DNA of 62,786 nt, counting the filler, from Basidiobolus ranarum (lineage: Eukaryota), in NCBI GenBank assembly GCA_040143965.1. It is 21 parts of 21 records of this genome, joined end to end, with 100 filler letters (N's around TTAATTAATTAA, not from the genome) between each part and the next. Parts side by side here need not be neighbours in the genome. Positions count along the whole stretch, not along the records: positions 30,013 to 32,907 come from JASJQH010002887.1; 20 more parts are not named here. One strand, written 5' to 3'. This document shows, piece after piece, positions 15,026 to 44,060 of the stretch. Under the pieces are notes generated by a model. That model made no database searches, was not told the origin of the DNA, and worked only from the letters and a program-made list of their open reading frames with translations. The position numbers and the translations under genes were made by a program. Within the stretch, counting starts at the first letter, position 1. Every line of letters starts with the position of its first letter.

Positions 15026-17035
15026 AGTCCAGTGAAGCCAGATTCTGGCAATAATCCGCGCCGTAACAAACAACCTAATCCAAGCCCAAGCAACACTTCA
15101 AGAAGTGGTAGCAGACCTAGTCCAGTGAGGCCAGATTCTGACAACAATCCGCGCCGTAACAAACAACCTAATCCAAGCCCAAGCAATACCTCTGGAAGTG
15201 GTGGCGAACCTAGTCGAGTGAAGCCAAATTCTGGCAACAACCCACGCCGTAACAAACAACCTAATCTAGGCCCAAGCAACACTTCAGGAAGCGGCGACAA
15301 TCCCAGTGTGGTGAAGCCAAGTTCTAACGATCCGCGCCGTAGCAATCGACCCAAGTCAAGCTCAAACGATACTTCAAGAAGCAATGAAAAGGTCAATACA
15401 GGAAAGTCTAGTTCTTACATTAAACCAGACCGCAGTAATCAATCCTATTCAAGCGCTCCAGAAAATGATAAGTCTAATCCAGAGAGACAAGTACCAGATA
15501 GCTCAAACCGTAGTAATCAATCAAAGCCATATTCAAAAGATACCTCTAAAAATGATGGTAACCCTGACTCAGGAAATGGTGATCAAACTGGAGCAAGTCC
15601 GCCGGTTCCTGGAAATGAACTCGAGCCTAGCTTTACTAATAAGCCAGGCTCAAATAGTAACCTGGACCGAAACAATCTACCAAAACCAAATGTCGATGAA
15701 GAACCTAGCAGAAATCTTAAAGGTTTGAATCTACCAAAAACCTATGGCCAGCCAAACGAGAATAATTTACCAGCCACATTTAATATCCTAGATGACATAT
15801 TTAGCACATTCGCTAGATTTTTGGATAGTAAAAATCGTCGCTCTCAACCGTCAGACTCTTCTAGACTTCTGAAACAGAATGAAATCCCTTCAACTCGTCC
15901 AACTCGTTCCGCTAGACGGAATGATGATAGAAAGTCCAACACAGATTCTGAAGAAGACTCAAATCCGTCAAAAACCGATGACCAACCAAATAGATATACG
16001 TCACTAGTCAAAATGAACATTCCAGATGTTATTTTCAGCACACTCGCTAGATTATTGGATAGTAAGGATCGTCGTTCTGAACCATCTGACTCTCCTAGCC
16101 TTTTGGAACAGAATGAAAGCTCTTCACCTCGTCCAACCCGTTCCGCTAGACGAAATGATGATGATAGAAGTTCCAATACAGATTTTGAAGAAGACTCAAA
16201 TCCGTCAAGAGCCTATGGCCAACTAAATAGGAATACTTCACCAATCATATTAAACGTTCCAAACGATTTGTTTAGCACATTTGCCAAATTTTTAAGTAGT
16301 AGATACTCTGATCCTCAAAAAGCTGTCCCTTCCAACGATAAAGACTTGAGCAAAAATCCTACAGCTGTTACGCCAGTGAGAGAAGAAAATATAGAAACGA
16401 ACAGCAGGCCCAGAGGATTAATACGTACCTTTGTAAAGAGTCTGATTCGTGATAGCAAGCTCAAAATACTTCAACAAAGAGCGAGGGAGAGGAAAATAAA
16501 ACAATTATTGAGAATCTTGGGGAATTCGCTTTCGCAAAGTCGATCAAGAAGAAATACCAAATCAATCTTTCCGAATTCTTCGAAAAATAGGCTTAGGAAG
16601 ATTCGTCAACTCTTGACACCAGAGAGAATCCAAGATCTCCGAAGATTTGCTCTGAATAATAGAGATACACTATCACATCTAGTCAAGAAACAAACTAAGA
16701 ATGAATACTTTCCTAATTTACCTAACTACGTTCTTAGAAATCGTAGGCTTTCAAATGTCATCAAGACGCGTAATAATGAGAATCGGTTTAAAACTGTAGG
16801 CCTCAATAAGCCTCGAGTTCCGATCTATACTTCATATTTGAGTGGCGAAGAAAATGAGCCTGAGGATAAAGAGTCAATTAATTTACAGGAAAGCCGTATC
16901 ACTGGATCCTTTGGCAGACTGTTGAGTAAGATCAGATCCTCTAATAATGAAAAACAACTAGATGCCGAAAATCAGGATGATGATGGAAATCAGCTTGATA
17001 GACAAGAATTACTTAATGCCCGCTCTTTACTTTGA
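15026..17035 (+). CDS. Low-complexity Ser/Asn/Pro/Arg-rich repeat protein (5'-truncated, >667 aa)
   Basis: 2-kb open frame with 31-aa tandem repeats (KPDSGNNPRRNKQPNPSPSNTS...) and a ~80-aa unit with an FST(F/L)A(R/K)(F/L)L core seen three times. CpG is retained. Confidence 0.85.
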   Translation, partial: SPVKPDSGNNPRRNKQPNPSPSNTSRSGSRPSPVRPDSDNNPRRNKQPNPSPSNTSGSGGEPSRVKPNSGNNPRRNKQPNLGPSNTSGSGDNPSVVKPSSNDPRRSNRPKSSSNDTSRSNEKVNTGKSSSYIKPDRSNQSYSSAPENDKSNPERQVPDSSNRSNQSKPYSKDTSKNDGNPDSGNGDQTGASPPVPGNELEPSFTNKPGSNSNLDRNNLPKPNVDEEPSRNLKGLNLPKTYGQPNENNLPATFNILDDIFSTFARFLDSKNRRSQPSDSSRLLKQNEIPSTRPTRSARRNDDRKSNTDSEEDSNPSKTDDQPNRYTSLVKMNIPDVIFSTLARLLDSKDRRSEPSDSPSLLEQNESSSPRPTRSARRNDDDRSSNTDFEEDSNPSRAYGQLNRNTSPIILNVPNDLFSTFAKFLSSRYSDPQKAVPSNDKDLSKNPTAVTPVREENIETNSRPRGLIRTFVKSLIRDSKLKILQQRARERKIKQLLRILGNSLSQSRSRRNTKSIFPNSSKNRLRKIRQLLTPERIQDLRRFALNNRDTLSHLVKKQTKNEYFPNLPNYVLRNRRLSNVIKTRNNENRFKTVGLNKPRVPIYTSYLSGEENEPEDKESINLQESRITGSFGRLLSKIRSSNNEKQLDAENQDDDGNQLDRQELLNARSLL

Positions 17036-29718: not shown

Positions 29719-30012
29719 ATAAAAGTGTTTAGGGGATTTGGAAGTGTTTTGGACAAGATTTGGATTTGTGAATTAGACACTTAAGTTTTATTGAATTGAA
29801 CATGCCCTATTTATAGTTTACTATGAAATAGGACTATTGGACGTGCTTAGATCATAACAAACATGCCTGTTAAGCATGGGTGAAAATTTGAGGTGATTTG
29901 GAGAAGTTTTGANNNNNNNNNNNNNNNNNNNNNNNNNNNNNNNNNNNNNNNNNNNNTTAATTAATTAANNNNNNNNNNNNNNNNNNNNNNNNNNNNNNNN
30001 NNNNNNNNNNNN

Positions 30013-30146
30013 TCTACGATGCCAGGTATTTCTATGAACTGAGCAATATTGTAGATAGGGCTTTCAGGGTTGAGTTGTTGTGCCAGCCAAATTTCAGTTT
30101 GCATAGCGGATAACGGATACATTTTTGGGTGGGTGAATGGTGCCAT
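30013..30146 (-). CDS. Non-ribosomal peptide synthetase, N-terminal (starter) condensation domain, 5' fragment
   Basis: [42 protein letters not shown] contains the C1 motif (LSxxQxxIW...YNI). Only ~44 codons are visible. Confidence 0.85.
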
Positions 30147-31717
30147 TTTCACTTGAGGATGCCGATTGTAGATGGACTGATTTTATAGAAAAGTAGACCA
30201 GAGTTAGAACTGTGATCACAAATCAGTCAGAGAAGTTCAGACAAATGAGCCTAATCACCTCAGTGTAAGGAATATATTAAGTACAAATCAAAATATGACA
30301 GTAAGAAAAGTGGTTGTAGGTAGAGGTTTTCCCAATGTTCTAGGTCTGTGCTTCAATTAACCAACAAGCTATGGTGTACTGCTAGTCTCTAGGGGAGCTT
30401 TGAAGACAAACTATCTATGTTAATACGTGAAAAATTGGCAGTGTATTACAATTTATAAGCAAGTGACTTCATATATGTTTTTTGAAAGGGTCTGACAAAT
30501 GCTCCAATGACTCAGCATTGGAGTAATAAATACGATCTGAATATGGGGATCAATCTGGGGGAACGAAATATTTACGTTTGGTCATGTCACTGCATGAAGT
30601 TGCAGAATACATCAGTAACTGCTGAAGTATTATTGTAAAATATCCGAGGATGGGCTTTCTCTTTACATTACTATGAATCCATCCAAGATGGCTCCCAGTG
30701 AGTGCTGATCTATTGACCTGATTTATTTCCGAGATCAAGGCGTCGTAGTAAGCATGGACAACTGGAGGATAGAATATTGAGAGTAAGGTTGTATACTGCG
30801 TTACAATGCAGTAGAGATCTGTTTCAGCGAGATCACTGTAGGTAGAAAGCCGAGTTTCGGGACTGCAATGTTTGCTAAAACGAAATTTGATGGATAGATA
30901 TGCTCTTAAAGCTTGTCTGCAGATTGGCCAGTGTAATTAGAGTTGAAGTTTCATATTGCACTCGCTTGATACAGTTTCATTAGAGTTATCAATACATATC
31001 TGCATGTATTATACAGGCACATGTTCCTACCATAGATTGTGGATGCGAAGCAGCATGGTACAGCGAAGACAAAGTTTCAAACCTGCAACAAACTACCTGA
31101 AGCATCCCTCTATTATACTTTGCTACTATTCTTTATACCTCTATGATTAGTTTTATGTATTTCCCAACGTGTATATCAATGTATATCTCAAGCTCGACAA
31201 AGCGATCCACGCTAATCTGATGCTATATCAATTAGCCTAATTCATCAAGGGAGCCAAGCTCTCGTAGCTAGCAGCAGGAAAGAAGATGACTCCCACATAT
31301 GCACATCATTTCTTACAATTGCAAATTTAAATTCAAATAACTTGTATCTTATTTGCCCGACCTATTCGAATATTCGTTTTCATTCGTTCAAGATCTAATA
31401 ATTAAGTTTATTATATAATGGATTTTACTACTTGTTGATATATTTGGTACTCATCTTTGCCATTTCAAAATATGGGAATCAACCTGAGATTAGTGTCATG
31501 AATCTTGAAGCTTCGAAGTCACCCCAACAAACCCTATGATGGCTCGTTGTACTATCGTAGATTCTTGGAACACAATCCCATTGTTTTTTCAATATTTCCG
31601 CCATTTTGTTCAAATAATGTACTTTAGGTCAATTCATGAATAACTTTAAACACATAATACATTCATTTCGTTGTATATGATTAGAGCTCACCTTTTCCAG
31701 AACCTCTCTTATTACTT

Positions 31718-32334
31718 ATGCAATGATTTTTTATTGGTATGCTGACACTACAACGCTAACAAAGAGCACCCTGTTCTACCAGAATTACCATGCCTCTGAG
31801 AGCTGGTAGATCTACTTCCAGTCTGACCATACTCTCCAGGGTAAGACTGCGGTTGGAAATGGAGGAGACAATTGCAATGGAAATGGCAGCACCGGAGCTG
31901 GTGCATATGCTGCTGTTAAGGGTAGTAATGGAAAAGGCAATGTTAACGGTGGCTTTGGTAATGGCAATAATGGGGCTGGCACTTATAATTCTGGCAAGAG
32001 TGATAGCAGAAGCAGTGCTGGAAATGGTTGTCCCGACAACAGAGGAGATAATGGTTATGACAATGGCGGTGAAGGAGCTGGCCCTTATGATGCTTGAAAT
32101 AGTTGAGCCAATGGAAAAGGCAACAGTGGCCATGAAGCTGGTACCTACAATACTGCAATGGGTGGAAATGGAAATGCCGTGATAGCGGTGGTTTTAGTAA
32201 TGGAGGAGATCATAGATAATTGCAATTGAGCTGGCGTTCATGATGCTGGAAAGTATGGGGATGGTAATGGCCACGGTGGCAACGGTGGCAATAGATCTGG
32301 ATCTTCTGATACTGGAAAGGGTGATTTAGGGTGA
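31718..32334 (+). pseudogene. Gly/Asn-rich repeat protein remnant
   Basis: A frame not in the ORF track reads GNGGDNCNGNGSTGAGAYAA..GAGTYNSG..GAGPYDA*, with repeated GAGxYD units and in-frame stops. Confidence 0.6.
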
Positions 32335-32907
32335 TGAAAAGCACCAGAAGGTGCAATCTTTATTTATCTCAAGTTGGACAACAAAGATAAATAATGAAGC
32401 CAAGATAGAACTAAAATTCATAGGATGAAGCTAACTAAAATCTTTTTAAGGCAGCTTCCCAAGTTTCTTCATATATGATGAAGGTGTAGGGATGAAGTAC
32501 CTGAGCTTGAGAAATATGGAAGTCTTTCAGTAACTTTGTTATGAGTGGAGAGCAAGAAAACCTTAGAATTGAAGAAAATCTTATAAGCAGAGTATCCTTT
32601 AAAGAAAAGGGCATATAAAGTGGTGTATCAGCATTTTCTTTGAAGTAATGAGCTCTTGGCTCCCAAGGGAGACTATCATACACTTACTCAGAGAGTTTTG
32701 CAATGACACTCTTTTCAATCATAAACTCAAGAGTATAGTGATTGAAGTACCTTGTGTTAATAATTGTAACAATATCAATACTTTCTATAAAATTACTTAG
32801 GGGGGATGAAAAGCACCAGATGGTGTAGACTTTATTTAGCTTAAATACTAATCTAAACAAAGTGACAATCAAGACATCAATCTTTTGAGATATTGTGACA
32901 ATACTGA
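32335..32907 (+). mobile_element. Third LTR-like family (C): two TGA.AA.CACCAGA.GG starts (32335 and 32807), the second after a G-rich PPT-like tract
   Basis: The same motif follows AGGGGGGA at 51052 on the - strand; CpG-free. Confidence 0.5.
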
Positions 32908-41983: not shown

Positions 41984-44060
41984 TTTCCTTTGAATTGATG
42001 GTAGGATGTTCACTCGAATGAGTCTTCTCAGTCTCCGTTGATTTCTCATGGTGCTCGCTGGAACTGGACTTCTCAGTTTCCTTTGACTTCACGGTAGGAT
42101 GTTCACTGGAATGAGTCTTCTCAGTCTCCGTTGATTTCTCATGGTGCTCGCTGGAACTGGACTTCTCACGGTGTTCGCTCGAACTGGGCTTCTCGGTTTC
42201 CTTTGACTTCACGGTAGGATGTTCGCTGGAATGAGTCTTCTCACTCTCCATTGACTTCTCATGGTGATCGCTGGAGCTGGGCTTCTCAGTTTTAATCGAT
42301 TTCGCTGGTTGTTGAGTGGAACTTGTTTCAATTTGCGGTTGAGATGACTGTGGCGGTGGTGGTGGAGGCGGAGGTAGTGCGTTTGCACAACTTGGTTTTC
42401 CCTCGAAAGGAACACATACATAGCCACTACCACAGGAGGAAGTTTCCTCTCGACCATTTACGCATTTAATCATTATGGGCGAAACATTTTCTTGCAAGCA
42501 ACCTGGAACACACTTTTTGGAATGTGGCTTCTCAGTTGTCTTGGATTCCTGGTTATGTACACTTGATTTGGGCTTCTCAGTTGCTTCTGTTTTCGGATGT
42601 TGGCTGGTTGATTTTGTATCGATTTGAGGTTGTGATGACTGTGGTGGCTGTAATGGCGGTGGAGCCAGGGTATTGGCACAAGTAGGTTTTCCCTCAAACA
42701 AGACACAAACCATGCCACTGCCGCAAGATGATGTTTCGGTGTGGCCATTTGTGCATTTGACCATAATGGGCGAAACATTTTCTTGCAAGCAACCTGGTTT
42801 GCACTGGTTGGGCGCAGAACTTGCTTGAATCGTCTTTGAAACGGAACTTTTAGCTTCCTTTGAATCATTGGAATTAGACTTCGGTTCTTGAGTACTCGTG
42901 TGAGAAGGTTTAGATTGAATGTGGGTTTTTTCACTTTCGCCTTTGGATTCGTTTTTGTTCTTACTATACGATATGGTATTTGAAGCACTGTTTTGTAAGG
43001 TTGGTTTAGCCAATGATGATGGCAAACTTTTTCTTGATCCAGGGCTTGGGTTTTGGACGCTTTCAAGGAAGATCTGGCACTCCACTGAGGATACTCTCGT
43101 ATCTAAGTTGTATTTATGCAACGTCCAGTCGTAGACCCATTGTCTATGAAGAACATCTACGCAGACGGCTTGTTTAGCGCACCACGTTGGTACCATTTTC
43201 CCGTTTTCGCACCACAAATATTCTCCTGTCGTCCAAGGGTCGACGCATTCGATTTGCTTTGTGCATTCGTTTTCTGTAACTACTTTCTTGACCTCTTTGC
43301 CCACGGAAATTGTAGTCTTCTCGATCTTCGTACTTGTAATCTCATGATTTTTCCAAATACTTCCCGGGACACACATGTTCAGTATTTCACTGCATTCCAT
43401 ATTCGGTCGACAGGGGTATATTTGATATCCTGCTTGTGAGTCAGCACAATAAAGAGCTGCAGTACCGTTGTAACAACGCCCTGTACCTAACACACATTCA
43501 CCGCCTCCGTCTATAGGAGGCATATTTATAGGTCTGCATCCTTCACCTGGCTGGCATTCTCCATACGGTCCACATGGTAGAAGGCCGGCGACGTTATCAT
43601 GACAGAATGCTACATTATGTTTGTCGTAACAGTAATTCTGGAATGTTTTCGAATCACAGCTTTGGGTGACGACTTTTGAACTTTCTTTCGTTTTGTAGAT
43701 GACTTCAGTTTTTGTAGCGGTCGTTTTTCCAGTGTGATAGTAGGTTTGTTTCCAACGACGGTTACAGAAAACCTTGGTGTCGCTTTGTTGCTGACATTGA
43801 TACTGTCCATTTTTGTTAGGACATTTTTCTATTACCCACTGTCCGTTGATGCACTTCTTTGCTTCGGTATTGCTGATGCAAGTAACTTTAGCAGAATTAC
43901 AGTGACCGGATAATGTTTCAACTGGTTGAAGTGTGGCTACTGAAGTAAAACGATTGGCGCTATATATGCTACCAATGTTTTCTCCGCTAGGGTTTTGTGC
44001 ATGAACAACCCTTACGGTTTTTGTTAAGAACAACGAGATCAGCAGTATTTTGAGAAACAT
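41984..44060 (-). CDS. Secreted Cys-rich protein with several CBM19-like modules and a Ser/Glu/His/Lys-rich repeat tail (3'-truncated)
   Basis: Signal peptide MFLKILLISLFLT; about six C..C..CxNG..C..C modules, two nearly identical (PGCLQENVSPIM.KC.NG..ETSSCGSG.VC); SSSEHHEKS repeats. Confidence 0.85.

Follow-up and report, generated by a model that had tools for sequence, protein, structure and literature searches.

Putative 5' end of a nuclear gene for a bacterial-type starter-domain NRPS in Basidiobolus ranarum, and its close paralogues

At the very end of a short contig of the Basidiobolus ranarum assembly (65 Mb in 13,754 contigs) lie a few dozen codons that read like the opening of a bacterial nonribosomal peptide synthetase (NRPS). 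The question raised by this locus is whether a gene of the fungus itself begins here with a starter condensation (Cs) domain of the bacterial type, from where such a gene came, and what its product may be. The window, i.e., the whole stretch of DNA analyzed (62,786 nucleotides), is comprised of 21 contigs of about 2.9 kb joined by N44-TTAATTAATTAA-N44 linkers, and contigs that are neighbors in it need not be so in the genome. The contig that carries the reading frame, at its left end, is G000:C2887 (window 30013-32907, 2.9 kb), which is laid out as follows:

29913..30012, no strand: artificial linker; the sequence to its left is an unrelated contig
30013..30146, minus strand: first 44 codons of the NRPS, the N-terminus of an RzmA/HolA-type starter condensation domain, cut by the contig end (from the ORF, Pfam and alignments)
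30147..30625, minus strand: non-coding upstream region, putatively promoter and 5' UTR (conserved in three paralogues, 71-84%)
30796..30975, minus strand: remains, now decayed, of a second NRPS of bacterial type, covering the T-domain end and the linker into a dual E/C domain (DNA identity of 73% to a remnant upstream of paralogue C8321)
31675..32325, plus strand: degenerate multi-copy Gly/Asn/Asp-rich sequence family (matches on at least 8 other contigs, 72-82%)
32326..32786, no strand: dispersed host repeat of about 460 nt (matches on at least 20 other contigs, 75-81%)
32795..32907, no strand: repeat of about 113 nt at the contig end (98-100% identical on at least 11 other contigs)

The contig counts for the three repeat families (8, 20 and 11) are drawn from the best 40 of 447 candidates.

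A minus-strand ATG at 30146-30144 opens an ORF of 44 whole codons (30146-30015) that runs off the contig at 30013 with no stop or frameshift, and an in-frame stop lies about 20 codons upstream of the ATG. The peptide quoted in the sequence-only reading is in frame on this strand and starts at residue 10, in agreement with the statement there that it begins within ten residues of the start codon. The fragment matches positions 3-37 of the 456 in the Pfam Condensation model (E 1.7e-4), which is below the cut-off for a whole domain because only a fragment of the domain is present. It aligns with RzmA over its length without gaps (25/44 residues identical; it scores 131, whereas 1000 shuffles reached no more than 45), and 40/44 residues are identical to those of paralogue C8321. 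The Pfam match, the shuffle test and the identity to C8321 together establish that the domain match is not a matter of chance. The start Met is in register with that of Mycoavidus-type NRPSs (44/44 columns, no gaps), and the fragment includes the very N-terminus of the Condensation domain and the residue equivalent to Q36 of RzmA. With its domain running from residue 10, its Met in register and a stop upstream, the ORF has the appearance of the first domain of an NRPS. The HHxxxDG site (residues 139-145) of the window copy falls beyond the contig end; 44 codons of this copy are present in the assembly, and a genome search for a continuing contig returned only four paralogues (5/5 candidates scored).

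DNA upstream of the ORF carries several signs of its surroundings. Approximately 480 nt (30147..30625) are conserved among paralogues, with differences that include frame-breaking indels, and the start codon has an A at -3 and no Shine-Dalgarno-like word upstream. The NRPS remnant at 30796..30975 was recognized through its DNA identity; tblastn at E 0.05 did not detect it on this contig, because it is too decayed, and its counterpart upstream of C8321 is frameshifted. On C8321 the bacterial-type remains (L007:1111-1811, G000:C8321) comprise a starter piece, the end of a T domain and the start of a dual E/C domain, all frameshifted, on the same strand as the intact paralogue and about 1.4-2.1 kb upstream of it. 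The Gly/Asn/Asp-rich reading frame at 31675-32325 has no Pfam match, and its family also occurs upstream of paralogue C1819, which has the same repeat neighbors as the window copy. The 460-nt repeat is probably what the sequence-only reading called family C. A host repeat on the contig, as claimed there, is indeed found, since 32329-32423 matches 51058-50965 on a second contig of the window at 78%; some contigs with the 460-nt repeat carry eukaryotic genes, and repeats lie beside Brix and RING-finger genes. The 113-nt repeat also terminates several of its 11 other contigs, and the contig end here would appear to be an assembly break at a repeat.

The coding stretch (133 nt) matches four other contigs, C8321, C8818, C1819 and C11503, at 87-93%. 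Measured against the domain of C8321, those of the close paralogues are 73-85% identical, a partial copy on C9888 is 65% identical, and two distant copies, on C8087 and C13, are 44-47% identical; 19 other matches in the genome, the window's own aside, reach 19-29%. Condensation domains number at least 80 in the genome (of 145 candidates, 80 were scored), many of them of the fungal type. A search for related loci with the C8321 domain confirmed no relatives among 148 candidate stretches; the same search with a Mycoavidus query gave 27 loci. P0156, a protein that carries the label Basidiobolus ranarum, and one of the paralogues are the same in sequence (100%).

The order Cs-A is seen in the paralogues, and the domain start at residue 10 is kept in the four closest. 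The ends of C11503 and C9888 overlap exactly over 111 nt, and the two are probably one monomodular Cs-A-T-TE gene, the only architecture traceable in this genome, the remaining family members being cut by contig ends. In Basidiobolus meristosporus, ORX94939.1 is dimodular (Cs-A-T-E/C-A-T-TE) and 66% identical in the Cs domain; with its two A domains it is presumably one of the genes of Tabima et al. The HHxxxDG motif is intact in 4/4 close paralogues and in B. meristosporus and altered in 2/2 distant copies, G000:C13:154-1455 (L079) and G000:C8087:4588-5883 (L078), where Arg replaces the second catalytic His (HRxxxDE in C13, HRxxxDG in C8087); activity in the distant copies is probably weak or lost. 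As annotated, the C8087 protein is longer at its N-terminus by about 150 residues. Paralogues are under purifying selection, with dN/dS of 0.12-0.22 in 6/6 pairs; the window's 44 codons, with few sites, give 0.23-0.45. Duplicated units that include upstream DNA, together with decayed remnants, suggest birth and death in this family. Elsewhere in the genome, NRPS pieces on G000:C1383, C1587, C8294 and C10422 have LCL and dual E/C domains that group with those of Mycoavidus and Mycetohabitans, and some of these pieces may be missing downstream modules of the starter family.

The class of the domain was clear from comparison with proteins of known structure. The best of 39 solved sequences are three variants of RzmA-Cs (E 4e-144 to 1e-142), followed by CDA, ObiF1, EntF and VibH, with TycC at 1e-15. 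RzmA itself (WP_013428324.1) is 49.9% identical, and among 25 plasmid matches listed the top 9 are Mycetohabitans sequences at 49-51%, one of them RzmA. The closest bacterial proteins are from Mycoavidus or Glomeribacter (55-61%), while free-living taxa reach at most 44%. The phylogenies drew on 40 genome loci, for domains 330 aa or longer, and on the first three domains of 53 proteins hand-picked from 275; they were made up without Dikarya or Mortierella reference NRPSs and without the 44-aa fragment. In a FastTree phylogeny of 181 domains, the six copies that are complete or nearly so belong to the starter clade and are separate from LCL, dual E/C and the genome's fungal-type C domains; LCL and dual E/C domains of bacterial type from this genome likewise fall with their endofungal counterparts. 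The fragment itself is placed with the starter family by its identity to C8321. The starter class as such was defined by Rausch et al. 2007 (PMC1894796), and the bacterial-type starter domain proposed from the sequence thus withstands both the structural matches and the trees.

In an IQ-TREE phylogeny of 47 rows, the four close copies and ORX94939.1 form a clade (100/100) on a long fungal stem (0.36). That clade is sister to the monomodular NRPS P0158 of Mycoavidus sp. HKI (96/80; branch 0.026), within a Mycoavidus/Glomeribacter group (96/84) that is itself inside a Burkholderiaceae clade (100/100). The closeness to endofungal Burkholderiaceae named in the sequence-only reading is borne out by the nearest bacterial proteins (Mycoavidus, Glomeribacter, Mycetohabitans) and by the trees, and on sequence grounds the bacterial origin of the starter family is firm. 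The distant pair C13/C8087 falls beside Mycoavidus sp. SF9855 (99/86). Two separate transfers, one for close and one for distant copies, appear in the best tree and were considered, but one origin (a single Basidiobolus clade) is not rejected in the AU test (p 0.205); nor is a clade of endofungal bacteria that lacks Basidiobolus (p 0.131). Neither AU test being decisive, the exact donor and the number of transfers are not fixed. The nearest bacterial relatives are the starter-C NRPSs P0158, P0160 and P0135 of Mycoavidus/Glomeribacter (57-60%), of which P0158 is Cs-A-T-TE, like C11503 with C9888; symbiosin synthetase also has a starter C domain (PMC9769094). Mycoavidus genes differ from those of Basidiobolus in their GC3, gene-dense flanks and ribosome-binding-site-like words.

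Residence in the fungal genome is indicated by several properties. Matches to dnaA and to 16S (the latter under a stricter filter) number zero in the assembly, where absence from a draft is a weak sign, and a bacterial rpoB was not found either, as 0/18 rpoB matches exceed the cut-off. The model for the second subunit of RNA polymerase is matched over its C-terminal part by seven contigs (G000:C6894, C7493, C1518, C282, C3064, C36 and C2619), more than three eukaryotic polymerases need, which suggests genome duplication or heterozygosity. GC3 is 0.35-0.39 in four paralogues, 0.43 in the window's 44 codons and 0.37-0.44 in six host genes, vs 0.54-0.58 in three Mycoavidus loci and 0.61-0.68 in five Mycetohabitans loci (n=8 bacterial loci; L125 was left out of the range, its stretch being out of frame). 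ORFs cover 0-0.35 of the upstream DNA in six fungal contigs vs 0.74-0.99 in nine bacterial loci. The description of contig C2887 as AT-rich is accurate in that its GC is 38.3%, but this is ordinary among the window's 21 contigs (31.8-41.6%). The upstream-plus-gene arrangement is repeated on three other contigs (71-84%). The distant copy on the 54-kb contig C13, the only copy for which linkage to eukaryotic genes is seen, is linked to Uso1/p115 and to a gene with a GT-AG intron candidate; in a length-limited search, the matches to Uso1 were fungal or without a name. Other contigs of the window carry Hsp70 and SH3-PX-PB1 genes, the latter 54% identical to that of B. meristosporus, its nearest other relative; two long ORFs (about 670-690 aa) that match no Pfam family and show strong strand skew lie at window 15032-17035 (plus strand) and 41984-44060 (minus strand).

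Taken together, it is probable, with room for doubt, that the 44-codon stretch represents the genuine 5' end of a gene in the Basidiobolus nucleus, and that this gene belongs to a group of at least five close paralogues descended from a Cs NRPS of a Mycoavidus-like member of the Burkholderiaceae. By the proposed course of events, an ancestral Cs NRPS would have been acquired from such a bacterium before B. ranarum and B. meristosporus split, and would then have been duplicated together with its upstream DNA.

What the enzyme might do is suggested by RzmA-Cs and HolA-Cs of Mycetohabitans rhizoxinica (rhizomide and holrhizin; PDB 7C1H and relatives), to which the Basidiobolus domains are alike in N-terminal place, residue numbering and about 50% identity; the likeness to their lipoinitiation, with a starter C domain indicated by position and phylogeny, is one of sequence. 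In the text available of PMC7804268, RzmA-Cs and HolA-Cs catalyze condensation between acyl-CoA and the first amino acid, RzmA residue 148 gates chain length (Arg for C2, Ala for C8, Gly for C8-C10), and Y138A of RzmA admits longer chains. By analogy, the A domain would load a hydrophobic amino acid onto the T domain, the Cs domain would link this residue to the acyl group of an acyl-CoA, extension would fall to any additional dual E/C module, and the TE would release an N-acyl amino acid or short acyl peptide. Q36, Q136 and HHxxxDG are kept in the close paralogues as in RzmA/HolA, and in its core motifs the first A domain of C8321, like that of ORX94939.1, is similar to RzmA A1, a Leu-loading domain of the same family. 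The 40/44 identity to C8321 suggests that the window copy may work as its paralogues would. The systems differ in that the Basidiobolus genes, known here from sequence, are nuclear fungal genes with host codon use, whose traceable members have one or two modules.

At the gate, where RzmA has Arg, Ala is found in C8321 and C1819, Gly in C11503 and B. meristosporus, and Phe in C8818; thus 3/4 paralogues have Ala or Gly and none has Arg. Residue 138, Tyr in RzmA, is Met, Ile, Ala, Val or Thr. By analogy these residues suggest an acyl chain of medium length or longer, not acetyl. The gate Phe of C8818 is as in DhbF, and aryl acids are what DhbF and EntF, in the wider clade, load through their starter domains; a donor of that aryl kind, instead of a fatty acyl one, is conceivable from the sequence. 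Since the traceable members are monomodular (C11503 with C9888) or dimodular (B. meristosporus), the likely products, judged by analogy, are amino acids or dipeptides N-acylated with a medium or long chain. Of the horizontally acquired lipopeptide synthetase originally put forward, the horizontal origin stands; "lipopeptide" is a predicted product, and relatives of one or two modules would make N-acyl amino acids or dipeptides. The fullest reading is held tentatively, at a little under an even chance: that one or two transfers from a Mycoavidus-type bacterium gave rise to a family of lipoinitiating NRPSs that has expanded, is under selection and remains catalytically intact, its acyl pockets having diversified, that a Basidiobolus ancestor hosted or met such endosymbionts, and that the fungus by itself makes undescribed N-acyl amino acids or short lipopeptides.

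Weighing against a working copy are the decayed NRPS remnants upstream of the window copy and of C8321 and the two distant copies without the second catalytic His, from which it follows that copies of this starter family do die. The family might then be horizontally acquired while the window copy is a duplicate that has been truncated or has died, or has a starter domain with a structural role only, as in Mortierella. The missing continuation of the copy and the HR motifs of C13 and C8087 fit with this, as does the available text on M. alpina, in which starters are inactive as a rule. But the 44 codons are open, the start context and some 480 nt upstream of it are conserved, the four closest paralogues retain HHxxxDG and the residue-10 start, and the contig ends, as in the exact overlap between two family contigs, fit a k-mer assembly broken at repeats; a dead or structural copy is thus considered unlikely. 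The M. alpina enzymes MpcA, MpbA, MalA and CalA are alike in belonging to an early-diverging fungus, in their endobacterial origin, and in having dual E/C domains and an N-terminal C-like domain. According to the portions available of 10.1101/2020.08.21.262279, PMC9365243 and PMC9893682, their starter domains are truncated, lack the His-His motif and are LCL-derived, the MalA starter is without activity, and malpinin is acetylated in trans. In contrast, the fragment here has the domain N-terminus, and the Basidiobolus paralogues are full length (Pfam positions 4-456, with His-His) and within the bacterial acyl-transferring clade. The Mortierella precedent cited for this locus therefore holds for endobacterial NRPSs and not for starter domains of this kind.

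The remaining alternatives concern origin. An unsampled free-living or gut member of the Burkholderiaceae, sister to the endofungal lineage, is an improbable donor, and would leave the mechanism as in the preferred reading, with the donor alone changed; the unrejected AU topology, the short branch that joins Mycoavidus to the long fungal stem, and gut bacteria having been argued as donors (PMC7466969, in the text available) speak for it, against which all nearest bacterial matches are Mycoavidus, Glomeribacter or Mycetohabitans (about 50% for the last), and the genome's LCL and dual E/C domains also group with endofungal ones. Less probable still is that the contig derives from a Mycoavidus-like endosymbiont or a chimera, as in some Mortierellaceae assemblies. 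The danger of contamination is genuine, as clustering at 90% puts some Podila- or Linnemannia-labelled proteins together with those of Mycoavidus or Glomeribacter. Also in favor of it, the coding part is intronless and 81% identical over 96 nt to a Mycoavidus gene. On the sequence evidence contamination is unlikely here, given the lack of dnaA, rpoB and 16S, host-like GC3, gene-poor flanks with host repeats, no ribosome-binding site, and purifying selection; the repeated upstream-plus-gene arrangement and an orthologue in a second Basidiobolus species add to this. The Podila- and Linnemannia-labelled matches were dropped as a second fungal lineage on account of that clustering. Among them P0005, P0157, P0159 and P0171 are singletons; the P0006 and P0007 clusters and P0426 and P0427 are public NRPS records labelled Podila verticillata or Linnemannia gamsii that are apparently endosymbiont genes, and such mislabelled records could inflate claims of transfer into Mortierellaceae. 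Least credible of all, to the point of being nearly dismissed, is the reading of a fungal NRPS passed down vertically, or of a C domain that is internal, its upstream modules lying in unrecognized exons. The many fungal-type C domains of the genome and the absence of Dikarya and Mortierella references from the trees leave room for it, but the genome's other C domains are only 19-29% identical vs 50-60% for bacterial starters, the start Met lines up with those of bacterial genes, only decayed NRPS remains lie in the upstream DNA, and the solved-structure matches, FastTree and IQ-TREE contradict it. The contrast with Dikarya drawn in the sequence-only reading was overstated, as PMC9365243 cites a case in fungi, the starter domain responsible for acetylating aspergillicin A.

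That bacterial NRPSs occur in Basidiobolus is already known: horizontally acquired "surfactin-like" NRPSs were published by Tabima et al. 2020 (PMC7466969), which supplies the precedent that had been invoked. Their genes, as described in the text available, share with those discussed here the genus, bacterial origin, few introns and host-like composition; that analysis used A domains and proposed gut bacteria as donors, and neither "starter" nor "Burkholderia" occurs in its main text. In their available text, 10.1101/2021.12.02.471044 and 10.1101/2025.03.31.646025 name no Mycoavidus donor for Basidiobolus, and a literature search, with subscription papers mostly outside its scope, found no report of an intact starter domain or endofungal donor in Basidiobolus and no description of Mycoavidus-type endosymbionts of this genus.

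Published Basidiobolus metabolites, as of the text available of PMC10964425, are only cyclic pentapeptides. Because the characterized NRPSs of early-diverging fungi have dead starter domains, the predicted intact bacterial acyl-loading domain would constitute a missing route to acylated peptides in these fungi. A Mycoavidus-like donor, if true, would mean that part of the Basidiobolus NRPS expansion came from endofungal symbionts rather than from gut bacteria, an idea testable on the many new Basidiobolus genomes. By analogy with RzmA and HolA, the fungus may make acylated peptides not yet described, for which the paralogues provide named genes and predicted product classes to look for.
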